From positions 75,499-139,498 of the forward strand of contig JAZRPS010000018.1 in the NCBI GenBank assembly GCA_045649345.1: DNA of 64,000 nucleotides, in the 5' to 3' direction. The translations under genes were made by a program, and so were the position numbers. This DNA is from Candidatus Enterousia sp. (lineage in GTDB: Bacteria > Pseudomonadota > Alphaproteobacteria > Rs-D84). The notes beneath the pieces were generated by a model. That model searched no databases and was not told where the DNA came from. It saw only the letters and a list, made by a program, of their open reading frames with translations. Positions 2,141 through 62,181 of the stretch are shown piece by piece (within the stretch, counting starts at the first letter, position 1; every line of letters starts with the position of its first letter).

Positions 2141-3922
2141 CTATTTCATTTTATGCTTTATATCTGCAACGATTGCGTCTACATCAAAACCCATCCGCGC
2201 ATAGACCGCATCACCTGAACCAGACATACCAAATCTATCAATTCCAACAACCGCATCGGCAAATTCAAACCATGGTGCAGATGCCGCCGCCTCTATCGCA
2301 ACGACAAAACCACGCAACATCTGTTGTTTATATTGTAAATCTTGCATACGAAAATCTGCAACAGATGGCACAGACACCACCTGAACCGCATCGCCCAGTT
2401 TTTCTGCAACAGCGATTGCCAACGGAACCTCACTCCCCGTTGCTAGCAATGTCACAGACACACGCGACTTTGACGCAGACCGCACCACATATGCACCGCG
2501 CGACAAATCAGCACCCAACGGCGTTGCAACCAAACCAATCAATTGGCGCGACAGAACAATACATGATGGGCGTGTTTTTTCTGTTAACGCACGTCGCCAT
2601 GCATACATAACCTCTACCCCATTACATGGACGAAAAACATTTAAGTTCGGCATTAATCGCAACGACGGCAATTGTTCAATTGGCTGATGCGTTGGTCCAT
2701 CTTCGCCGACTGCAACACTATCATGCGTCAACACATAAACAACCGGCAATCCGGACAAGGCTGCAAGACGAATACTGGGTCGCAAATAATCACTGAACAC
2801 CAAGAATGTAGAACCAAAAACACGCAACCCAGACAACGCCATGCCATTCATAATCGCACCCATTGCATGTTCGCGAACGCCATAGTTTATATAATTACCG
2901 GCAAAATCATCTGACGTTATATCACGCGTTGCACTACTTTTTACATTCGTACTGCCACCTAAATCCGCACTGCCACCAACGACACGAAGCCCAACCTTAA
3001 AAAGTTCTTCTAAACAAAGCCCCGACAATTCACGTGTCGACATCGCCCCACCAACCACAGGCATAACAATATTTGGAATCGAAACATCTGGTTTACGCCC
3101 CACTGTTTCAACACGTTCTGTCGCCAAATTTCCCCACAACGCATCACCCGTTGGCGACAAATAACGCTGAACCAAATCCATCAATTCTGCATCCGACAAC
3201 GAAAAACCATGTGCCTTGTGCGAACCGGCACGACTGGAACCACGACCAATTTCCGTTTTACATTGAATAAAGACAGGACGATCTGATTTTTGCGCTGCAT
3301 TCAACGCACGATTAATCTGCACAAAATTGCCACCATTTACCGTAATTACACGCCACCCTGCCGCCACCATACGCGCAGGCACATCAACATCCGTCAATGC
3401 CACACCATCAATACTGACCCCATTATCATCCCACAATAAAATCAGATTATTTAACTTATACCGACCTGCAAACGCGATTGACTCTTGGGCGACACCTTCC
3501 ATTAAATCGCCATCAGAACACAAACAATACACACGCGAATCGGTCTTGTTTATTTTTTCCGCCATTGCCATACCAACAGCATTTCCAACACCCTGCCCCA
3601 GTGGCCCTGTTGTTGCATCAACACCTGGGATTCCATATTCAGGATGCCCAGGCAAGCCATCAATTTTACGATAACCATTTAAATCGCCGATATTATACCC
3701 GACCAATTTTAACACAGAATATAACAGCGCACTGCCATGCCCGGCAGACATAACGAATCGGTCACGACCGCGACGAATAAAATTCGCAAACAGCGTTGTC
3801 ACAACATCCGTCGCCCCCAAGACAATGCCAACATGCCCACTGCGCGCAACACGCACTGCATGCAACGCCCATGCACGAACCGCATTTGCCATTTCTTTTA
3901 AATCTTTGGAATTATATGTCAT
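2141..3922 (-). CDS. tkt: Transketolase
   Basis: Strong TPP-binding and transketolase motifs (GHxGxxLG, DGDLMEG). The start was trimmed to MTYNSKDL at 3922 because the ORF-track N-terminal extension is non-homologous. Confidence 0.9.
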   Translation of the reverse strand: MTYNSKDLKEMANAVRAWALHAVRVARSGHVGIVLGATDVVTTLFANFIRRGRDRFVMSAGHGSALLYSVLKLVGYNIGDLNGYRKIDGLPGHPEYGIPGVDATTGPLGQGVGNAVGMAMAEKINKTDSRVYCLCSDGDLMEGVAQESIAFAGRYKLNNLILLWDDNGVSIDGVALTDVDVPARMVAAGWRVITVNGGNFVQINRALNAAQKSDRPVFIQCKTEIGRGSSRAGSHKAHGFSLSDAELMDLVQRYLSPTGDALWGNLATERVETVGRKPDVSIPNIVMPVVGGAMSTRELSGLCLEELFKVGLRVVGGSADLGGSTNVKSSATRDITSDDFAGNYINYGVREHAMGAIMNGMALSGLRVFGSTFLVFSDYLRPSIRLAALSGLPVVYVLTHDSVAVGEDGPTHQPIEQLPSLRLMPNLNVFRPCNGVEVMYAWRRALTEKTRPSCIVLSRQLIGLVATPLGADLSRGAYVVRSASKSRVSVTLLATGSEVPLAIAVAEKLGDAVQVVSVPSVADFRMQDLQYKQQMLRGFVVAIEAAASAPWFEFADAVVGIDRFGMSGSGDAVYARMGFDVDAIVADIKHKMK

Positions 3923-5610: not shown

Positions 5611-8484
5611 CTACTCCTTTTTACTCTTCTTTATTTTATTGTCTTTTGTTGTTTTGTCCAGATACTTTTGTAAATATTTTCCTGTTTGCGATTCTGGGAC
5701 TCGCACCACATCTTCTGGCGTCCCTGTTGCAATAACTTGCCCGCCCTTGGCGCCACCGGTTGGTCCCAAGTCTATAATCCAATCCGCTGTTTTAATGACT
5801 TCCAGGTTATGCTCAATAACTATTACGGTATTACCCTGCTCTACCAATTCATGTAAAACAGACAATAACATTTTAATATCTTCAAAGTGCAAACCTGTTG
5901 TTGGCTCATCCAAGATATAAATTGTTTCACCTGTACTGCGTGCCGATAATTCCTTGGATAATTTTATGCGCTGTGCCTCACCCCCAGATAAATCCAGCGA
6001 ACTCTGCCCCAATTTTATATAATCCAGCCCCACACGCTTTAACAATTCCAATTTACGGGCAATTTTTGGCACATTAATAAAGAATCTATATGCCTCTTCA
6101 ACAGTCATGTTCAAGACATCTGCGATTGATTTTCCCTTGTACTTTACCGCCAGCGTTTCTTCGTTATAACGCGTTCCACGACAGCAATCGCATTCGACAT
6201 ACACATCTGCCAAGAAATTCATTTCTATTTTTATCTGACCATCACCCTGACACGCTTCACACCGACCGCCCTTAACATTGAACGAGAAACGCCCCGACGT
6301 ATAACCGCGTGCCTTTGCCTCTGGCAAACCTGCAAAGAAATCACGAATATCGCCAAAAACGCCCGTATACGTTGCCGGATTACTGCGTGGCGTACGTCCA
6401 ATTGGCGACTGGTCAATATCGACAACCTTGTCCACATTTTCCATACCACGAATAATATCATGCGCCCCTGTTTCCAACTTTGAATTATACAGTGCGCGCA
6501 TCAGTGCCGGGTACAGCGTATTTAATAACAGCGTTGATTTCCCAGACCCGGAAACACCGGTTAATGCCACAAATTTACCCAACGGGAATTCTACCGTCAC
6601 ATTCTTTAAATTATTTTCACGCGCCCCCACAACAACAATTGACTTACCATTACCAGACCGACGTTTTTTCGGCACGGGGATTTGACGCACACCCGACAAA
6701 TATTGTCCCGTAATTGAATCTTTATTTTTTATAACCTGTTGCGGCGTTCCGTGCGCAATAACATTTCCACCATTGATACCCGCACCACGCCCAATATCGA
6801 CCAGGTAATCCGCCTCTCTCATTGCGTCTTCATCATGCTCAACAACGATAACGGTATTATCCTTGTCACGCAGCATTTTTAATGTTTCCAGCAGTTTATC
6901 ATTATCGCTTTGATGCAGACCAATTGACGGCTCATCTAAAACATATAAAACACCAGACAGCCCACTGCCAATCTGGGACGCCAAACGAATACGTTGCGCT
7001 TCGCCCCCAGACAATGTACCAGCCATACGCGACAACGTTAAATATCCCAAACCAACATTTTGCAAGAAATACAACCTGTCTGTAATCTCACGCAAAACAA
7101 TTCGTGCAATTTCGTTATCTTTTTGCGACAAATGATTCGGCAAATCACGAAACCATTGCAAACAGTCGTCAACAGACATATCGCAAACATCCATAATATC
7201 TGCATCGTTGATCCGCACACACAAGGCATGAATATTCAACCGCTTGCCATGACAAACCGGGCAAGGCTTTTCAGACTGATATTTTGCCAGTTCCGTACGC
7301 ATTGCCTCTGATTCAGACTCGCGCCAACGACGTTCAATATTTGGAATTACACCTTCATATGGCTTTTCATAAACAAATCCATTCCAATTTATTTTTATTG
7401 CCTCGTCACCACTGCCATATAAAATCAAATCTTTCTGTTCCTGGGTTAATGTATGCCACGGTTTTGATAACGGAATCTTAAACTTTTTATGCAGCGCATC
7501 CAACAAATGTTCAAATTGACTAAGCATGCCACCACGCGACCACGGCGCAATTGCCCCACTTAAAATCGATTTTGATGGATCCGGCACCACCAAATCTGGC
7601 GACATATTTAACTGTACCCCCAATCCATCACAGTTCTGACACGCACCCATCGGGGCATTAAATGAAAACAATCTTGGTTCAATCTTTGGCACGGTAAAGC
7701 CACTAACCGGGCATGCATAACTTTGCGAATAAAGCGTATCTTCGTTCGTATCCAAACGACGCACCAATACAGACCCCGGCACCAAACGCAACGACCCTTC
7801 AAACGAAGAATAAAGTCGCGACCTAAATTCTTCTGTATCCGAATCCAACAGTGGCATTTGCAATCTATCCACCACGACCAAAATTGTATGCTTTTTATTT
7901 TTATCCAATGGTGGCACAGCAGACAAATCAACAATTTCCCCGTCAATAATCGCACGTTGATAACCCTGCTTTACCAAGAACGCCAATTCTTTACGATATT
8001 CGCCTTTGCGTTCCCGCACCAAGGGCGCCAGTATAAAAATTTTTGTCCCAGACGGTATTTTCATTGTCCAGTCGACCATTTCTGCAACCGTTTGTGACTT
8101 AATCGGTTTTCCCGTCACAGGCGAATGCGGCACACCAATTCGCGCCCATAACAAACGTAAATAATCATAAATTTCTGTCACTGTACCAACAGTTGAACGT
8201 GGATTTTTTGATGTTGTTTTCTGTTCAATTGAAATCGCAGGCGCCAATCCTTCTATCAAATCAACATCTGGCTTTTTTTGCATATCCAAGAATTGGCGTG
8301 CATAACTGGACAACGATTCCACATATCTACGTTGTCCTTCGGCATAAATAGTATTAAACGCCAACGATGATTTCCCGGAACCAGACACGCCGGTAAAGAC
8401 CACCAATTTATTTTTTGGTATGTCTAAATCAATATTCTTAAGATTGTTTTCGCGCGCACCACGAATTTTAATTACACCAGCCAT
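5611..8484 (-). CDS. uvrA: Excinuclease ABC subunit A
   Basis: 957 aa with two ABC ATPase modules. The N-terminus [43 protein letters not shown] is canonical UvrA. Confidence 0.95.
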
Positions 8485-11668: not shown

Positions 11669-11807
11669 CCAAAAACTTGGCACGCCCTACAGGATTGTAA
11701 ATTCCCATCTTCGCTTTCGCTCAATGGGCCCCTTTCGCCTACGGCTCGAACCTGTGACGGCTCTCATCCTTTGTCCGCGCCAAAAACTTGGCACGCCCTA
11801 CAGGATT
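11669..11807. repeat. Tandem partial duplicate of the tRNA-Arg 3' region: two 28-bp direct repeats (11669-11696 and 11780-11807) flank an 83-bp insert whose first 50 bp (11697-11746) is a conserved core also found at tRNA-Ser
   Basis: ccaaaaacttggcacgccctacaggatt occurs twice. On the tRNA strand the insert reads ...gtcACAGGTTCGA[50-bp core]AATCCTGTAGGGCGTGCCA. This is a tRNA-Arg T-arm/acceptor copy split inside the T-loop. Confidence 0.85.
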
Positions 11808-11865
11808 CGAACCTGTGACCTGCAGATTAGAAATCTGATGCTCTATCCAGCTGAGCTAAGGGCGC
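11789..11865 (-). tRNA. tRNA-Arg (anticodon TCT)
   Basis: GCGCCCTTAGCTCAGCTGGATAGAGCATCAGATTTCTAATCTGCAGGTCACAGGTTCGAATCCTGTAGGGCGTGCCA folds as a clean cloverleaf with anticodon loop TTTCTAA. Confidence 0.9.
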
Positions 11866-22122: not shown

Positions 22123-22360
22123 TTATCCAACCACCGCAACATAAAAATAAAATGCCCAAAACGGGCATTTAATTTTTATAGCGGATGGTGAGGGATTGTA
22201 AATTCCCATCTTCGCTTTCGCTCTATGGGCCCCTTTCGCCTACGGCTTCGAACCCCACGCAACTTCGTTGCTCATCCGGGTGTTCTTATCCAACCACCGC
22301 AACATAAAAATAAAATGCCCAAAACGGGCATTTAATTTTTATGGCGGATGGTGAGGGATT
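22123..22360. repeat. Tandem partial duplicate of the tRNA-Ser 3' region: two 75-bp direct repeats (22123-22197 and 22286-22360, 1 mismatch) flank an 88-bp insert that starts with the same 50-bp core (22198-22247) seen at tRNA-Arg
   Basis: Each repeat contains the tRNA 3' 19 nt plus 56 bp of flank, including the gcccaaaacgggc terminator hairpin. On the tRNA strand the insert reads ...gcgtGGGGTTCGAA[core]AATCCCTCACCATCCGCTA. Confidence 0.85.
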
Positions 22361-22431
22361 CGAACCCCCGGTGGAGTTGCCCCCACAACGGTTTTCAAGA
22401 GCGTCGCATTCGACCGCTCTGCCAACCATCC
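22342..22431 (-). tRNA. Class II tRNA with long variable arm, most likely tRNA-Ser (anticodon TGA)
   Basis: GGATGGT...CTCTTGAAAACCG...GGGGGTTCGAATCCCTCACCATCCGCCA has a 7-bp acceptor stem, a T-loop and a long variable stem. The cloverleaf could not be fully folded by eye. Confidence 0.7.
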
Positions 22432-22568
22432 GAAACTATACACGCCGGCGGTTCTTTCAAACCGACGGTTTTGGTGTTTCACATGACATTGTCATGCTCA
22501 CACTCCACTTCGCTGGCGCTTCGTAGTCAAGACCGCTCATCTCAACACGCTCTGCCAACCATCCGAAA
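22415..22568. repeat. 21-bp direct repeat of the tRNA-Ser 5' end (22415-22435 within the gene; 22548-22568 as an upstream fragment) separated by 112 bp
   Basis: cgctctgccaaccatccgaaa appears twice, covering tRNA positions 1-17 plus 4 nt of flank. The spacer contains a catgacaatgtcatg palindrome and a GATGAGCGGTC motif resembling the tails of the 3' inserts. Confidence 0.8.
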
Positions 22569-22577
22569 GTATATTCA

Positions 22578-22877
22578 CTAATTTGTCAGACAGCACCAAC
22601 GGCGCACATTATACATTATTTTTTTTAAAATTGCAAACATAAAATCATATATCCAATAACAAATCCCTAAATCAACAATGACACAACCAGGACGTTGCAT
22701 GGTATCATATAGTTGAAAACCAAAGTCATTTTTCTGATAGTAATTATCAATCGCCAGCATTCTTACCAAGATATCTGCACGATTTATATTTTGTTTCATA
22801 GAGTGAGAAAAGAGCCATTCGGTATCAAGTATCGTTTCGTCAATCAGCTTGTATTTTGGATATGGTATAAGATTCAT
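22578..22877 (-). CDS. Hypothetical ORF in an AT-rich spacer (possibly a gene fragment)
   Basis: 99 aa with no recognised motif in unusually AT-rich DNA; its C-terminal part looks low-complexity. Confidence 0.2.
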   Translation of the reverse strand: MNLIPYPKYKLIDETILDTEWLFSHSMKQNINRADILVRMLAIDNYYQKNDFGFQLYDTMQRPGCVIVDLGICYWIYDFMFAILKKIMYNVRRWCCLTN

Positions 22878-24507: not shown

Positions 24508-24723
24508 TTATCTCTGGTCGGGGCGACAATGAGTAAATTTGCCAAGTATCAAACGCAGGCAAATTGTCACGAATGCCACGCAGATTTATCACATTTTGTG
24601 ATAAAGCGAGTGAAACGTTCGAACCCGACAAAAGGATTTTGTCGTTTGAATCCACAGTTCCACCAAAATAAACAAAAATACCGCATTAACTGCGGTATTT
24701 TTGTTTATCTCTGGTCGGGGCGA
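24508..24723. repeat. 19-bp direct repeat of the tRNA-Pro 3' end plus flank (24508-24526 and 24705-24723) flanking a 178-bp insert
   Basis: ttatctctggtcggggcga occurs twice. On the tRNA strand the insert carries a T-arm-like GTCGGGTTCGAAC, then ~95 nt ending ...caaatttactcattg, then TCGCCCCGACCA. It also contains the bidirectional hairpin taccgcattaactgcggta. Confidence 0.8.
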
Positions 24724-24788
24724 AAGGATTCGAACCTTCGACATCTTGGTCCCAAACCAAGCACTCTACCAGACTGAGCTACACCCCG
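24712..24788 (-). tRNA. tRNA-Pro (anticodon TGG)
   Basis: CGGGGTGTAGCTCAGTCTGGTAGAGTGCTTGGTTTGGGACCAAGATGTCGAAGGTTCGAATCCTTTCGCCCCGACCA folds as a clean cloverleaf. Confidence 0.9.
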
Positions 24789-52560: not shown

Positions 52561-53277
52561 TTATTTTGGCATACCATATAAAGCGATACTTTTTTTTGAA
52601 TATGCGGCCCACATTCTGTCCCCATAACAGAAATGCCACCATTCGCCAGGATAATTTTTGAAGCCTATATTTTCCAAAGCTGTTTTTAAAATTTTTCTGT
52701 TATATTTTTGTTTTGGGGTTAAATGTTTTGATTTTGTACAAGTTTTATTATTTGTTTCCTGATAGTTTGTTCCCATATCGTAATCTTTCCCATTTTTATC
52801 GCACAAAGAAATATCTATGGCACCACCCGTTTGATGACCACCAAAACCAAATCGTGGGTCAGCACAAACAGCCTTGGTTTTAATTATAATTTCTTGTTCT
52901 GATAAATCAGGGTTTGCATTTTTAATTTTTTGATAATTTTTATTCCATAATAGAACCTGTTCATCATGGGAGCGGAATGCAGAATATATTTTAAAAAAAT
53001 GATTATCAGGTAATATCTTTTGAGCTTGTTTAATTTTATCATATACTGTTTTTCGCAGATAGACATTTTTGCGTTGTTTTAATTCTGATGAAAAACGTAT
53101 CGTTTTATCACCAGTTATATCAACCAATTTTTCGCCATTTTCTTTGATTGGTATATTGTTAATTATGGATGCAGGGATGGTCATACGCAGACCCAATCGC
53201 CATAATATATATTTAGTTTTATCTTTTATTTTCTTAATCATGTGAAACATTATAACATAGAGGGTTCGAAAGTTCAA
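52561..53277 (-). CDS. D-Ala-D-Ala dipeptidase (VanX/DdpX, M15D family)
   Basis: SAFRSHDEQ, GGHQTGGAIDISL and EWWHF zinc/catalytic motifs. The gene is markedly AT-richer than its neighbours. Confidence 0.75.
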   Translation of the reverse strand: MNFRTLYVIMFHMIKKIKDKTKYILWRLGLRMTIPASIINNIPIKENGEKLVDITGDKTIRFSSELKQRKNVYLRKTVYDKIKQAQKILPDNHFFKIYSAFRSHDEQVLLWNKNYQKIKNANPDLSEQEIIIKTKAVCADPRFGFGGHQTGGAIDISLCDKNGKDYDMGTNYQETNNKTCTKSKHLTPKQKYNRKILKTALENIGFKNYPGEWWHFCYGDRMWAAYSKKSIALYGMPK

Positions 53278-53369
53278 AAAATAATGATTTTTGATTTGTC
53301 AACATTCGAACTCGGTGGAAATATTAGAAAACAAAAGAAAACTTGCCTCGATAGGCAAGTTTTGAAACT

Positions 53370-59713: not shown

Positions 59714-61576
59714 TTGTATTATATTTATTGTGTGTGGGCAAGATATAGAATTTTTATCACATCACTTATATGTGCAACAGCAATTTGCGCACCTGTTCAC
59801 GCACAAAACTGCAACAGCGAAGTATACCGACTTTATCACCCAGACAAATGTGACAAATTCGTAAATTCAACCATAAAAAAAAGCGCGATTATTACTGGTT
59901 CTGCCATTGGATTGGTCGGTGGCGCAATCGTATTGTTCGGCAATACGTCATCGGATTCATCTTCTGACAACGGCACACCACAAGCATTACAACCAACCGC
60001 ATCAACATATGACCATGTCGGCGCCGATGTCGATATCGCCAGTATCAATCGGATAATCCAAGACCACGAATATTCTAAAAACATAAACCAATATAACGAA
60101 ATTCGTTTGGCATATTCTTTAGCACGTGGCTATACAGGATTAGGCAGTACAATTGCGGTTCTCGATTCTGGCAAAAACACATGGCACGGCGGAAATGTTG
60201 CATATTTCGCGTCTGGTCAAATCGCACCAAACGCGACTGTAAATTCATACATGGTATCTGATCGCGACGGAAACTTTATGCCATTTAACGAAATTGCAAA
60301 TGTTATTGAATCTGCAAACGGATCAAATATTTACAATTTCAGTTGGGCAATGGACAAACCCGCCACACAAATAAAGTCACGAACACAACTGGAACGCTTG
60401 ACCAGTGTAAACTTTATAAATTCATTAACAAATGCTGCCACACAAAACGATGCAATCTTTGTTTGGGCAGCAGGCAACGAATATCGCACACAACCAAACG
60501 CGTTGGCAGCAATGCCAAATGTTATCCCAGAATTACAAGGTCATGTTGTGAACGTCGTCGCATGGGACAGCGTAACAGGCGCATTGGCCGACTTCAGCAA
60601 TTCATGTGGCGTCACAATGAATTATTGCATAACCGCCCCAGGCACAAACTTAACAACGCCACAATCATCAGAAACACTGAACGGCACCAGTTTTGCTGCC
60701 CCAATCGTATCATCTGCTATCGCAGTAATACGCGAAGCATTCCCATACATGAAATCCACAGAAATAACACACTTACTATTCACAACTGCACGCGACCTGG
60801 GCATCGCCGGCATTGACGAAACATACGGTCACGGAATGCTGGACCTGGAACGTGCAACCCGCCCCGTTGGCACGCCACTGGTGCCATTATCAGATGGCAC
60901 GACCGTCAACCTGACCCAGGCACGCGTTGGTTCTTCTATTGGCAACCAAATAAAATCCAAAGATATAAAATTTGCCTTTGTTGATTCGTATGGCCGCGCA
61001 TTTGAAACGTCACTGAACAACAACATAAAAATACAGAACCGCAGCATTGGATTCGAACGCCTGCGCGAACACAACACCCCCCAGGCAAAAATCGGAAAAA
61101 TCACATTTGGCATAAAACAAAGCGACCTGCTGATGGCAGACGGTTTTTTACAATCCAACACACGCAACACCATGACATTCATCAGATATGATGATAAAAT
61201 CCAACTTGGCAACACGGAATTATTCCAACAGACGACATTTGGTTCAATGAACCCACGCCCAACACCCGAATCAATGATTTCTGGGTTTTTTAACGTATAC
61301 ACAGCATCTATTTTCATTGGCGCACGTTATAATGACCTAAGTTTCAGCATCGGCATACCAGACACAATTGTTGGCGGCAACGCGCACCTGAATATACCAA
61401 CAGGACGCACCACATCCGGCGAATATACATTCCGCGGCGCAACCATTGATTTAACAAATCATGACCCCACACTGGAATACAACGCAACATATAAATTTGT
61501 GACAGCCGGCTTTGTTGACAATCCATACGGCACAGACGAATTTTACATTTTGGGGCGCGGTCGCCTAAAATTTTAA
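59714..61576 (+). CDS. Subtilisin-like (S8) serine peptidase with probable C-terminal autotransporter beta-domain; atypical Asp/His spacing
   Basis: Signal peptide, then VLDSG, AAGNEY and GTSFAAP motifs. The only nearby His (TWHGG) lies 7 residues after the Asp. The C-terminal ~250 aa has alternating beta-strand character and ends ...RGRLKF. Confidence 0.55.
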   Translation: MYYIYCVWARYRIFITSLICATAICAPVHAQNCNSEVYRLYHPDKCDKFVNSTIKKSAIITGSAIGLVGGAIVLFGNTSSDSSSDNGTPQALQPTASTYDHVGADVDIASINRIIQDHEYSKNINQYNEIRLAYSLARGYTGLGSTIAVLDSGKNTWHGGNVAYFASGQIAPNATVNSYMVSDRDGNFMPFNEIANVIESANGSNIYNFSWAMDKPATQIKSRTQLERLTSVNFINSLTNAATQNDAIFVWAAGNEYRTQPNALAAMPNVIPELQGHVVNVVAWDSVTGALADFSNSCGVTMNYCITAPGTNLTTPQSSETLNGTSFAAPIVSSAIAVIREAFPYMKSTEITHLLFTTARDLGIAGIDETYGHGMLDLERATRPVGTPLVPLSDGTTVNLTQARVGSSIGNQIKSKDIKFAFVDSYGRAFETSLNNNIKIQNRSIGFERLREHNTPQAKIGKITFGIKQSDLLMADGFLQSNTRNTMTFIRYDDKIQLGNTELFQQTTFGSMNPRPTPESMISGFFNVYTASIFIGARYNDLSFSIGIPDTIVGGNAHLNIPTGRTTSGEYTFRGATIDLTNHDPTLEYNATYKFVTAGFVDNPYGTDEFYILGRGRLKF

Positions 61577-62181
61577 TCCCATTCTGGCATTATCTCATTT
61601 TTTTCTATAAAACGTGTCAGCGTATCACGATGCACGTGCAATCTTCGTGCAATTTCATATTTACTGCGCCCTGCCCCCAATTTTTGTGCGATATATTTTT
61701 CACGTCCACACAGCTTAGAATTACTTAAACAACCACGAGGTCGCCCGATAACCTTGCCTTCTGCCTTTACACGCGCCAGGGCCTCTTTGGTACGTTGGGA
61801 AATTAAGTTTCTTTCAATTTCCGCGGACAAACCAAATGCGAACGCCAAAACCTTGCTGGTTATATCACTGCCCAGGCGATAATTATCTTTTATTGTCCAA
61901 ATTCTTGCCCCTACATCCATACAATGGTGCAATATACTCATAACCTGCAACAAATTTCGCCCCAATCGTGATAATTCTGATGCAATAATCATATCATCTT
62001 TTTTTAACTTTTTGATTAATCGCCCTAGCTTTCGTTTTTCTAAATCCGTTGTTGACGATATTTTTTCAACAATCCAGCTATCTATAATCAAATCTTGTTT
62101 TTCACAAAACTTTTCAATTTCAAACCGTTGATTTTCTGTATTTTGATGTTCTGTTGACACACGAATATAACCATAAATCAT
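61573..62181 (-). CDS. Serine recombinase (resolvase/invertase family)
   Basis: MIYGYIRVSTEHQNTENQ catalytic Ser motif plus a C-terminal HTH. Its stop overlaps the stop of the S8 gene by 4 nt (convergent). Confidence 0.8.
   Translation of the reverse strand: MIYGYIRVSTEHQNTENQRFEIEKFCEKQDLIIDSWIVEKISSTTDLEKRKLGRLIKKLKKDDMIIASELSRLGRNLLQVMSILHHCMDVGARIWTIKDNYRLGSDITSKVLAFAFGLSAEIERNLISQRTKEALARVKAEGKVIGRPRGCLSNSKLCGREKYIAQKLGAGRSKYEIARRLHVHRDTLTRFIEKNEIMPEWD

Follow-up and report, generated by a model that had tools for sequence, protein, structure and literature searches.

Most likely, the decoy tRNA 3' ends described here harbour a tiny, previously undescribed mobile DNA. In the window (the whole stretch of DNA analysed, 64,000 nt from a 'Candidatus Enterousia' genome), a 49-nt core splits the T-loop of partial tRNA copies lying in tandem behind two intact tRNA genes, and approximately 30 copies of this core are known from 'Candidatus Enterousia' and related gut Alphaproteobacteria MAGs, to which the family is confined within our sampling. 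Our preferred interpretation, to which we assign a probability of roughly 0.4, is that the core is a miniature, non-autonomous insertion element. Its target would be TTCGA|A in T-arm-like DNA, probably in the form of folded single-stranded DNA, and the element would survive only in decoy tRNA ends.

Interrupted tRNA copies at two loci of the window

The intact tRNA-Arg(TCT) gene occupies 11789-11865 on the reverse strand (ARAGORN; Rfam tRNA, 67.9 bits), the strand of all features described below for this locus. A repeat search placed a 28-nt direct repeat, CCAAAAACTTGGCACGCCCTACAGGATT, at 11669-11696 and 11780-11807 with 100% identity, the latter copy comprising the last 19 nt of the tRNA (nt 58-76, AATCC..GCCA; 11789-11807), the first of the two 3'-end copies, and 9 nt of flank, AGTTTTTGG, just as an earlier sequence-only reading of this DNA had described. 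The 83 nt separating the repeats consist, on the tRNA strand, of ...GTCACAGGTTCGA, the core and AATCCTGTAGGGCGTGCCA, which bears out the partial T-arm/acceptor copy claimed there. The core (11697-11745), identified from its two window copies (none expected by chance), hairpin-3 covariation and a profile search, splits the partial copy exactly between TTCGA and AATCC; its position had been given correctly, and its length is 49 nt rather than the 50 bp proposed. The near-absence of a target duplication, put earlier at about 1 nt at most, likewise stands, with the limit set at 1-2 A residues at the core junctions.

From the tRNA gene outwards, the decoy begins with a left arm (11766-11783) that repeats the tRNA-Arg 3' end in inverted and diverged form (TTGGCGCGGACAAAGGAT, where the exact reverse complement would be TTGGCACGCCCTACAGGAT; local alignment, p ~0.026), followed by a GAG motif and hairpin 1 (GAGCC-GTCACA-GGTTC; 11748-11765), delimited from the sequence. 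Beyond the core, the right arm AATCCTGTAGGGCGTGCCA (11678-11696) supplies the T-loop 3' part, the T-stem 3' strand, the acceptor 3' strand and CCA, and is succeeded by the second copy of the 9-nt flank (11669-11677), which runs into the ribosome-binding site GGAGGAGG and ATG (11657) of a downstream signal-peptide ORF. The tRNA leads into this unit without an intervening terminator hairpin, a stem and U run end the unit just before the next gene, and a CCAA-N4-TTGG mini-palindrome forms the centre of a long imperfect palindrome.

The same core recurs with one mismatch at 22198-22246 (reverse strand), at the same T-loop position, between GGGGTTCGAA and AATCCCTCACC of a partial copy of tRNA-Ser(TGA), whose intact gene lies at 22342-22431 on the same strand (ARAGORN; Rfam). 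This second occurrence, already recognised in the sequence-only reading as an argument against random duplication, is not expected by chance (0 expected; 0/100 shuffles). The Ser core lies inside a 75-nt direct repeat of 99% identity, with a proximal copy at 22286-22360 and a distal copy at 22123-22197 (both reverse strand), the latter consisting of tRNA-Ser nt 58-76, a terminator hairpin and the start of a left arm (repeat search; terminator scan). The left part of the unit (22247-22302, reverse strand) combines the left arm TTGCGGTGGTTGGATAAGAAC, an inverted tRNA-Ser 3' end (alignment p ~4e-4), with a hairpin 1 that encloses a GCAAC-GAA-GTTGC mini-hairpin and ends in GGGGTTCGAA; it differs from the corresponding part of the Arg unit. 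In the Ser partial copy CCA is mutated to CTA, and neither ARAGORN nor Rfam called a tRNA in the Arg or Ser partial copies. Both window cores share a private variant, CGAAGATGGG..TTTAC, and Ser-type cores of other genomes have GGAGTGAAAACGAAC. These sequences indicate that the core alone was exchanged between the Arg and Ser units within this genome, and the identity of the two cores could reflect gene conversion instead of transposition.

A palindromic decoy unit

The decoy unit is palindromic, with inverted (left arm) and direct (right arm) copies of the tRNA 3' end flanking hairpin 1 and the core. The sequence-only reading had overlooked both the inverted copy and the conserved hairpin 1, whose 3' arm, together with the following GA, is what it described as the T-stem 5' half and TTCGA. 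In place of the T-loop complement GGATTCGAACC stands the motif GGAT[G/A]AGAACC, which is exclusive to this element (19 sites in relatives). Among these relatives (sequences given by L numbers), the hairpin-1 arms remain paired, with G.U variants, and the left arm matches the reverse complement of the cognate upstream tRNA. Both the hairpin-1 3' arm and the right arm are complementary to it; distal pairing is poor, as is pairing between left and right arms in general, and its decay differs by lineage. The tRNA 3' end, the terminator and the left arm together make up one long imperfect palindrome centred on the terminator loop.

Units measure 111-170 nt, and in nearly all copies the core lies approximately 60-110 nt from where the tRNA (or partial tRNA) ends. 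Most genomes have a strong intrinsic terminator between the tRNA and the unit, and the unit lacks its own promoter. In L004, L008, L009, L010, L013, L023 and L024 the proximal terminator is unlike the distal one, and the proximal terminators of Gln and Ser units are alike. The direct repeat extends 9-56 nt into the flank, reaching the left arm in the window Ser unit and L028. CCA has decayed to ACA in the L020 partial copy, and the inverted copy of L028 lacks the acceptor part.

We rejected several further readings of these parts. The left arm might have been made as cDNA of the mature tRNA, in which case the GAG change (positions 57/58) could be a signature of reverse transcriptase, but other decoys keep TCG; GGATGAG...GAAA departs from the hammerhead consensus and has no Rfam match; and putative decayed older units past the distal repeat (window Ser, L028 and window Arg) show no significant similarity to the unit.

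Core structure and covariation

The core consists of hairpin 2 (GCC-GTA-GGC; 11737-11745), a conserved linker (GAAAGGGG), hairpin 3 (CCCATT..GCGAAAGC..GATGGG; 11704-11728) and the tail AATTTAC. Hairpin 2 abuts the left junction, hairpin 3 lies 7-9 nt from the right end, and the two are dissimilar. Compensatory changes maintain the larger hairpin, hairpin 3, with pair 24-38 observed as AU (11), GC (4) and UG (1), pair 28-33 as CG (12), UA (4) and UG (1), and pair 27-34 as GC (15), AU (1) and GU (1). The covariation score was 0.156 against 0.075 for shuffled data, a value reached in 0/500 shuffles. In the L028 core the whole inner hairpin is swapped for CCCGCCGC-AATT-GCGGTGGG, with the outer CCC/GGG pairs kept and the single-stranded GGCGAAAGGGG and GGGAATTAC retained.

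The apical loops of hairpin 3 are GAAA, GTAA, GACA, GATA or GAA; 5 of 17 distinct sequences have loops (GACA or GATA) that break the RNA GNRA rule and fit G-N(N)-A. Wobble (G.U) pairs occur on the tRNA-sense strand only. RNA folding gave z = -2.5 (Arg) and -2.1 (Ser) for the sense strand, and -0.2 (Arg) and -2.3 (Ser) for the antisense strand, so that the strands are told apart by the Arg unit only. Single-strand DNA fold energy was unexceptional (z = -1.2 to +0.8) and was dropped as uninformative evidence.

Distribution across relatives and empty sites

An exact 20-nt seed matched 23 times in 22 GTDB species genomes, all of them Enterousia or gut Alphaproteobacteria MAGs, with 1-2 matches in each species genome having any. 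Further copies came from one JGI contig, L001 and the divergent L028 and L029, which were found without the seed, and overall copy number is low (1-3 per genome). A genome scan with a hairpin-3 pattern returned 0 matches because hairpin 3 varies, and a pattern for the 5' half of the core succeeded. Six tRNA anticodon types lie upstream of the copies: Arg(TCT), Arg(ACG), Ser(TGA), Gln(CTG), Pro(CGG) and Tyr(GTA). In the search among relatives that the sequence-only reading had proposed, every complete copy sits in a T-loop context, preceded by T(T/G)CG(A/G) and followed by AATC(C/T); a profile HMM run over 338 kb of sequence detected no core copy away from such a tRNA-linked context. Unit boundaries and small size are the same in approximately 30 copies from more than 25 species. 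L007 and L017 are the two contig ends of one MAG, meeting inside a unit.

Comparison with relatives lacking the insert, also proposed in the sequence-only reading, revealed empty sites in L002 (filled in L001 at the same locus) and in L030/L031, and the window's own tRNA-Gln is empty where L009, L010 and L013 are filled. Units form tandem arrays in L004, L006 and L020. The left arm of the Tyr-type unit is nearer to the reverse complement of tRNA-Gln than to that of tRNA-Tyr, both tRNAs having GGTTCGAATCCAGC; judged by this sequence resemblance, it suggests a hop from Gln to Tyr. An apparent integron-like cassette in L009, with two copies around a methyltransferase gene, proved to be a 1288-nt segmental duplication whose left edge ignores the T-loop junction.

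A second, unrelated element of 72 nt (CAATGAGTA...GCCGAGGG) occupies the same T-loop position in related decoys, at GGTTCGA|..|AATCC in L004 and at GGTTCGA| in L003 and L006. It is nested in a type-1 core at GGCGA|AAGGGG in L020, and lies reversed at GGGGCGA| in the tRNA-Pro decoys of the window, L002 and L014; in the L002 Pro decoy the T-loop is intact and the element sits elsewhere in the decoy. Ser decoys with either element have a GCAAC-N3-4-GTTGC mini-hairpin in common. We saw no decoy of the same locus in which the T-loop was uninterrupted and both elements were absent.

Search for a linked enzyme and known families

Clustering of 445 ORFs yielded no family recurring at different tRNA loci, and Pfam scans of 111 neighbouring ORFs and approximately 34 others (28 from the window, 6 from relatives) found no recurring family and no recurring recombinase. 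The sole recombinase genes seen were a small resolvase 50 kb off and a large serine recombinase abutting tRNA-Pro in L026. Candidate enzyme families include Y1 HUH/RAYT and IS110-like proteins, Xer paralogues and small serine recombinases such as that encoded at 61573-62181 of the window. Among the ORFs scanned in the 64-kb window and relatives there was no Y1 HUH transposase, and in no copy do the tRNA and the core enclose an integrase gene or a kb-sized insert. A tRNA-Arg 3' half that begins within the anticodon loop neighbours Fic and PHP/AAA_21 genes in L011 and L020. An exact-protein look-up of the neighbouring TolC-like gene returned no record.

Rfam 15 at gathering score reported five tRNAs only and left the cores unmatched even at E = 10, which led us to reject known RNA families, including tRNA pseudogenes, group I introns, ribozymes and rtT. 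Bacterial group I tRNA introns exceed 200 nt and interrupt the anticodon loop of an otherwise complete tRNA gene; with an insert of 49 nt in the T-loop of a copy without tRNA positions 1-48, this class was rejected as well. A phage attP arm was discounted after IMG/VR viral contigs scanned with two core sub-patterns gave 0 matches.

Probable mobility and alternative explanations

Under the preferred reading, a non-coding, hairpin-structured element would land between TTCGA and A(A)TCC of T-arm-like DNA and would persist only in a spare decoy tRNA 3' end in tandem behind the intact gene; insertion into a real tRNA would destroy that tRNA. From the DNA-type G-N(N)-A loops, the strict orientation and the lack of both a target duplication and terminal inverted repeats, we infer that it moves as, or into, folded single-stranded DNA, presumably through a trans-acting nuclease or recombinase, with an HUH/IS200-IS605-like enzyme and a recombinase that acts on folded att sites as the obvious candidates. 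This small non-autonomous element inserting into T-loop-like DNA was one of two explanations in the sequence-only reading, and is the better supported by the approximately 30 copies, six anticodon types, empty sites and a second element at the same site. Counting against it are the lack of a transposase or recombinase linked to the element, the copy number of 1-3 per genome, the absence of an intact element-free decoy and the unexceptional single-strand DNA fold energy (z = -1.2); the model also leaves the origin of the palindromic decoy unaccounted for.

The GATGAG motif conserved in most left arms moves together with the core, which fits a larger mobile unit better than one of 49 nt. It is possible, if doubtful, that the whole 111-170-nt unit (replacement tRNA 3' end, terminator, left arm, hairpin 1 and core) is a mini integrative element recombining at the tRNA T-loop TTCGA|A. 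Folded on one strand, its left arm would pair with the hairpin-1 3' arm and the right arm and mimic the duplex T-arm/acceptor region of the gene for the tRNA, leaving the core to stick out at the crossover point. On integration, the tRNA would be restored and its native 3' end displaced to become the partial copy. Such a unit would account for left arms that fit the upstream intact tRNA even where the distal copy is another allele (Arg in L008 and L011; Ser in L003, L005 and L025), for the unlike proximal and distal terminators at many loci and the likeness of Gln and Ser proximal terminators, for the Gln-like left arm of the Tyr unit, and for the tandem arrays in L004, L006 and L020. It would also agree with the sense-strand wobble pairs and with the GATGAG motif, which sets tandem G.A mismatches opposite TTCGA, the putative crossover. 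Duplex DNA of 111-170 nt is too short for easy circularisation, so this model favours a single-stranded intermediate. However, the repeat copies in the window Arg and Ser units, L001, L019 and L028 are identical well past the tRNA, terminator included, so the model needs later gene conversion, and where alleles differ the intact tRNA is self-consistent along its full length, which excludes a simple T-loop crossover as origin and is explained equally well by homologous recombination through the conserved core. The second element moreover moves as a bare core without arms (L020), arm pairing is poor with lineage-specific decay, and no recombinase was found among the ORFs scanned. A bolder and unlikely version would be a viroid-sized (111-170 nt) single-stranded DNA element whose arms imitate a chosen tRNA 3' end and direct a recombinase or nuclease to cut and join at the T-loop; in such arm-matched, retargetable integration, the switch from Gln to Tyr would represent natural retargeting, as would the versions for Arg, Ser, Gln and Pro, and every integration would restore the tRNA with a carried 3' end and terminator.

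The remaining explanations fare less well than the miniature insertion element. The sense-strand fold scores and G.U pairs, the tandem G.A pairs and GAAA loops, which are common RNA motifs, and the window Arg unit with its missing upstream terminator and terminal stem and U run would suit a structured RNA of host or element, co-transcribed with the tRNA as a CCA-ending tRNA-like minihelix, an extended terminator/processing module or an antisense/decoy RNA for the tRNA 3' end. We consider this decidedly unlikely, given the strong terminator between tRNA and unit in most genomes, the lack of a promoter in the unit and of any Rfam match even at E = 10, the decay of CCA (CTA in window Ser, ACA in L020) and of left-arm pairing, the 5/17 GACA/GATA loops that depart from GNRA, and the presence or absence of units among close relatives. 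Tandem inversion duplications of direct-inverted-direct topology have reportedly been described in Salmonella, and snap-back or template switching at the terminator palindrome, followed by remodelling and by homogenisation through gene conversion in which the core was a passenger, would involve no dedicated machinery; the imperfect palindrome of tRNA 3' end, terminator and left arm and the local flank included in the repeats agree with such an origin, yet it leaves unexplained why the same core, GATGAG change and inner boundary (5' of the T-stem) recur at six tRNAs, as well as the Gln-like left arm of the Tyr unit, the hairpin covariation and the missing acceptor part in L028, making it improbable. 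Most improbable is the other explanation of the sequence-only reading, that the units are relics (attR plus an att-proximal arm) of larger tRNA-integrating islands or prophages deleted down to their ends. A tRNA 3'-end direct repeat behind the gene is said to be the classic footprint of a tRNA-targeting integrase, islands at tRNA-Arg exist (L011 and L020), and L026 has its serine recombinase beside tRNA-Pro. In its usual form, however, this origin is at odds with constant boundaries and the same small size in approximately 30 copies, which span six tRNA types and more than 25 species (and genomes), with the lack of a recurring integrase or protein family and of any integrase or kb-sized insert between tRNA and core, with a core placed within the T-loop of the copy and not beside an intact att core, and with repeats running into the flank; compensatory upkeep of the core hairpin is also unexpected in a dead relic.

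If mobile, the element would be among the smallest known site-specific insertion elements, and its target would be the universally conserved tRNA T-loop. Abundant gut Alphaproteobacteria would then possess a nuclease or recombinase, so far unrecognised, able to read T-arm-like DNA, probably in single-stranded form, and decoy tRNA ends would serve as safe landing sites that protect essential genes. The tRNA-fragment repeats of the element break assemblies, as in the L007/L017 case, and can pass for prophage att sites.

Comparison with known systems

Tandem repeats that each contain the last 19 nt of the tRNA reportedly lie behind E. coli tyrT (rtT RNA, Rfam RF00391). The arrangement is alike, but sequence and Rfam similarity are absent, the E. 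coli repeats have neither a T-loop insert nor an inverted arm, and tyrT-type repeats are not known from many different tRNAs. With tRNA-targeting integrative elements of T-loop sublocation, our units have in common a tRNA 3'-end direct repeat starting in the T-loop, an intact gene proximal and partial copy distal, and tandem accretion; they differ in lacking an integrase and a kb-sized element, in the inverted tRNA-end copy, in the conserved insert within the T-loop of the partial copy and in repeats that exceed the identity block into the flank.

Miniature elements derived from IS200/IS605 (PATEs/MITEs) are said to be moved by HUH Y1 transposases. The core resembles them in being non-coding, without terminal inverted repeats or target duplication, in the fixed short sequence (TTCGA, with the variants T(T/G)CG(A/G) among complete copies) directly 5' of the insertion, in hairpins near its ends, and in a strict orientation that would fit a single-stranded target and putative mobilisation in trans. 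Unlike those derivatives, it is only 49 nt long, far below known sizes; its first hairpin stands at the junction rather than approximately 19 nt inside; its two hairpins are dissimilar, whereas IS200/IS605 elements have similar subterminal hairpins and guide/cleavage tetranucleotides at set spacing; and its target is embedded in a T-arm-like structure. REP/REPIN elements with their RAYT transposases (PMC3733652) are likewise small, extragenic and hairpin-forming, and often lie near terminators, but number tens to hundreds per genome against 1-3 here. Membership of that family, which is marked by a conserved GTAG or CGTC tag, was rejected, with only two copies in 64 kb, a core GTAG that is not conserved and is lost in L028/L029 (GCCAACGGC in L028), and a strict tie to tRNA 3' ends.

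Folded single-strand recombination sites are known from the CTX phage attP(+) with XerCD (PMC3442271) and the integron attC with IntI (PMC4792948). Here the target would be a tRNA T-loop in place of dif or attI, and, unlike integron attC, the units carry no ORF cassettes and their arms pair weakly. As in attP(+) and attC, however, imperfect inverted repeats folded on one strand may imitate the duplex target, with unpaired bases at the putative crossover, and the parallel would extend to strand specificity and to tandem arrays at a fixed chromosomal site.

Structure of the tRNA-Arg and tRNA-Ser decoys

Behind the intact tRNA-Arg(TCT) gene (11789-11865, minus strand), the last 19 nt of the tRNA plus 9 nt of flank (11780-11807) recur as an exact second copy at 11669-11696, confirming the repeat described in the sequence-only reading. 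On the tRNA strand, the interval between the copies runs from GTCACAGGTTCGA through a conserved hairpin-forming core (11697-11745) to AATCCTGTAGGGCGTGCCA. The core splits the T-loop of this decoy, a spare partial tRNA 3' end in tandem behind the intact gene, at the position first proposed, but is 49 nt long rather than 50. The same core was also correctly placed in the T-loop at tRNA-Ser (22198-22246; one mismatch, with no such match expected by chance), where a partial tRNA-Ser(TGA) copy, enclosed by a 75-nt direct repeat, flanks it with GGGGTTCGAA and AATCCCTCACC. Target duplication, previously put at possibly 1 nt, amounts to at most 1-2 duplicated A residues at the core junctions. Each repeat copy at the Ser locus contains a terminator hairpin; at the Arg locus no terminator was found between the tRNA and the unit, and the distal repeat continues into the start of a signal-peptide ORF, with its ribosome-binding site and ATG (11657).

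Upstream of tRNA-Ser (22432-22600), a partial 5' copy comprising the leader and nt 1-17 (22548-22573 versus 22415-22440) adjoins a promoter (22608-22637) and is separated from the intact gene by ~107 nt containing GATGAGCGGTC; with the 3' fragment downstream, the intact tRNA-Ser is therefore bordered by fragments on both sides. Plus-strand GC skew is strongly negative over nearly the entire window (1-64000) and the minus strand carries all five window tRNAs and most genes, indicating that the tRNA-sense strand has leading-strand composition.

The type-1 unit consists of a left arm (an inverted copy of the tRNA 3' end), hairpin 1, the core and a right arm (a direct partial copy). Sequence left of the apparent Arg T-stem is non-random: TTGGCGCGGACAAAGGAT (11766-11783) is a diverged inverted tRNA-Arg 3' end (reverse complement TTGGCACGCCCTACAGGAT), as TTGCGGTGGTTGGATAAGAAC is of tRNA-Ser. 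In shuffle tests, left arms matched their own tRNA (p ~0.026 for Arg, ~4e-4 for Ser) and cross-comparisons were not significant. GGAT(G/A)AGAACC stands in place of the T-loop complement GGATTCGAACC, what looks like the 5' half of the T-stem belongs to a hairpin, GAGCC-loop-GGTTC, as its 3' arm, and tandem G.A pairs can form in the GA..GA closing hairpin 1. The best match of the left arm is the reverse complement of the intact upstream tRNA, even where the distal copy is of a different allele (comparison loci L008 and L011 at Arg, L003, L005 and L025 at Ser). The Tyr-type left arm is nearer to tRNA-Gln than to tRNA-Tyr and GGTTCGAATCCAGC is common to both tRNAs, which suggests that units may change tRNA. 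Left-arm decay varies by lineage; core hairpins are kept.

Distribution and polymorphism among relatives

UvrA from the window shares 91-95% identity with proteins encoded in MAGs of uncultured Alphaproteobacteria. Further copies in relatives, a check proposed in the sequence-only reading, were recovered with a 20-nt core piece as probe against GTDB species, each represented by a single genome; this gave 23 tRNA-linked matches at 22 loci, all from 'Candidatus Enterousia' or gut/rumen Alphaproteobacteria MAGs. JGI metagenomes contributed one additional copy and viral contigs none. The gene preceding a copy is tRNA-Arg(TCT), Arg(ACG), Ser(TGA), Gln(CTG), Pro(CGG) or Tyr(GTA), and the tRNA-strand order is near-constant: the tRNA and a terminator come first, then the left arm, hairpin 1 (with GGTTCG(A/G) at its end), the core, AATC(C/T)-3' end-CCA and a second terminator. 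Across 338 kb of sequence, a profile HMM matched only tRNA-linked copies.

Loci L001, L002 and L028-L031 were obtained via UvrA relatives and hence not chosen by core. Relatives lacking the insert, also anticipated earlier, were present among them as two empty tRNA-Arg sites (L002; L030/L031), and L001 was filled (88% identity to the window copy). L028/L029 carry a divergent version that retains GATGAGAACC, GGTTCGG, GGCGAAAGGGGCCC and the junction of GGGAATTAC with AATCC, and has a wholly different inner hairpin 3 (CCCGCCGC-AATT-GCGGTGGG). The tRNA-Gln site is empty in the window and occupied in L009, L010 and L013. Arg and Ser cores of this genome have private variants in common, with Ser cores from other genomes forming a separate group; these common variants imply that units have exchanged the core alone, by either transposition or gene conversion. 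In MAG RGIG2010, where L007 closes one contig and L017 opens another, a type-1 unit is split by the assembly break, indicating that the repeat fragments MAG assemblies.

Folding of the core

The core comprises hairpin 2 (GCC-GTA-GGC), linker GAAAGGGG, hairpin 3 (CCCAT..GC-GAAA-GC..ATGGG) and tail AATT(T)AC. Across 17 distinct cores, hairpin 3 covaried at three pairs (AU/GC/UG, GC/AU/GU and CG/UA/UG), with a score of 0.156 versus 0.075 when shuffled, reached by 0/500 shuffles. In this genome the closing pair of hairpin 3 is caught in mid-change: its 3' side has gone from T to G in both window copies, and in the Arg copy a compensating A to T produces a U.G pair. All wobble pairs work on the tRNA-sense strand only. 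Apical loops (GAAA, GTAA, GACA, GATA or GAA) break the RNA GNRA rule in 5/17 cases, and all fit G-N(N)-A with C-G closure. Hirao et al. reportedly described d(GCGAAGC) and d(GCGAAAGC), which follow this loop pattern, as very stable DNA mini-hairpins, and the C-GTA-G triloop of hairpin 2 is likewise of this pattern. RNA fold z-scores were -2.5 and -2.1 on the sense strand and DNA fold z-scores were uninformative; no promoter for the unit was found, and the distal CCA of partial copies decays. Together with the intervening terminators, these loop, fold, promoter and CCA data suggest that the structure acts in single-stranded DNA rather than RNA.

Other inserts at tRNA ends

A second element of ~72 nt, unrelated to the core, reads CAATGAGTA..GAATGCCCCGCAGGC..GCCGAGGG and has two hairpins that vary in sequence; its insertions follow CGA or CCA and are seen in either orientation. 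It lies exactly between GGTTCGA and AATCC in L004, at GGTTCGA in the L003 and L006 decoys, after GCCA in L017, and inside a type-1 core between GGCGA and AAGGGG in L020 (6880-7040, minus strand). In the window tRNA-Pro decoy it occupies 24527-24617 (plus strand), reversed, after GGGGCGA, an arrangement repeated in the tRNA-Pro decoys of L002 (~6100-6210) and L014. This element moves as an insert alone, with neither arms nor a duplication. A GCAAC-N3-4-GTTGC mini-hairpin is common to Ser decoys with either element, indicating one decoy lineage with different inserts. The window tRNA-Pro decoy is a third unit (24508-24704, minus strand) behind tRNA-Pro(TGG) (24712-24788). The tRNA-Pro 3' end and flank recur there as a 19-nt repeat (24508-24526 and 24705-24723); the inverted arm is GGTGGAACTGTGGATTCAAAC, and a hairpin, GGGTTCGAA and the second element are also present.

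A 31-nt hairpin insert, TACTTCGCAAAATGCTTCGTATGGTAAACCA, ending in its own CCA, lies directly 3' of the tRNA CCA in L011 (~3620-3650), L015, L020 and L021, behind partial tRNA-Arg copies and tRNA-Gly. Another small repeat (..GACAATTA(A/G)NAAAATCTT(A/C)AAAAATCG..GATTTTTTTGATTTT..GAGGCAC), in L006 (1500-1640), L010 (~6150-6300), L013, L016 and L022, stops at a partial tRNA-Gln or tRNA-Ser 3' end, with its junction after the T-stem and not in the T-loop. In L009 (436-1800), a 1288-nt tandem duplication spans a whole type-1 unit, a class I SAM methyltransferase gene and a ~100-nt palindromic promoter/operator-like region (GAGTTCGAAAGT..TTTTCGAACTTTT); a similar operator-like sequence also follows the window tRNA-Gln (~53230-53300).

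Candidate enzymes and larger integrations

Across the different tRNA loci, the element has no protein family as a recurring neighbour, and the 111 adjacent ORFs scanned against Pfam included no recurrent integrase or transposase. Scanned window ORFs were housekeeping genes except for a small serine recombinase (61573-62181, minus strand; 202 aa, resolvase N-terminal domain), the only recombinase seen in the window, placed between subtilase and choloylglycine hydrolase genes. In L011 (3800-7690) and L020 (7250-7500), a tRNA-Arg 3' half begins in the anticodon loop, the mark of a different kind of integration at this gene; it adjoins Fic/DOC-HTH and PHP-AAA_21 (defence-like) genes in L011, and a further intact tRNA-Arg(TCT) of a different allele lies upstream in L020. 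In L026 (10343-11871), a gene for a large serine recombinase with Resolvase, Recombinase and Zn_ribbon domains ends within or against tRNA-Pro(TGG), which suggests an integrated element supplying most of this tRNA.

Interpretation and comparison with known systems

Our tentative preference (probability about 0.4) is to read the core as a non-autonomous insertion element of miniature size, which would be specific for the TTCGA-A junction in T-arm-like DNA and maintained only within decoy tRNA 3' ends. The anatomy, distribution, polymorphism, covariation and nesting are observed; from these sequences we infer the strand form and the enzyme, in that a trans-acting HUH-type nuclease or recombinase probably acts on the core as a folded DNA single strand. 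The main rival, which we consider somewhat unlikely, makes the whole unit of 111-170 nt the integrating entity: folded as one strand to imitate the tRNA gene, it would enter at the T-loop, as for CTX attP(+) and integron attC (PMC3442271, PMC4792948). Such integration accounts for the left arm, differing terminators and arrays, but is hard to square with the inclusion of local flank in the repeats and with a second element that behaves as a bare core. Other explanations are less likely still. An RNA gene is improbable, being at odds with the terminators, CCA decay and presence/absence polymorphism; slightly less credible is an inversion duplication by replication error, which leaves recurrence at six tRNAs unaccounted for; and a relic of large islands, at odds with the constant small size and absence of integrases, is the most doubtful.

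Literature searches found nothing similar to the core element, and a REP element was rejected on low copy number and non-conservation of GTAG. T-loop-targeting integrative elements resemble the core in the repeat only. With IS200/IS605-derived miniature elements, the putative insertion element shares a fixed 5' target, lack of duplication, hairpins and strict orientation; its hairpin geometry may differ, and no cognate transposase turned up among the ORFs scanned. The core would represent small non-autonomous mobile DNA, unusual in both target and habitat.
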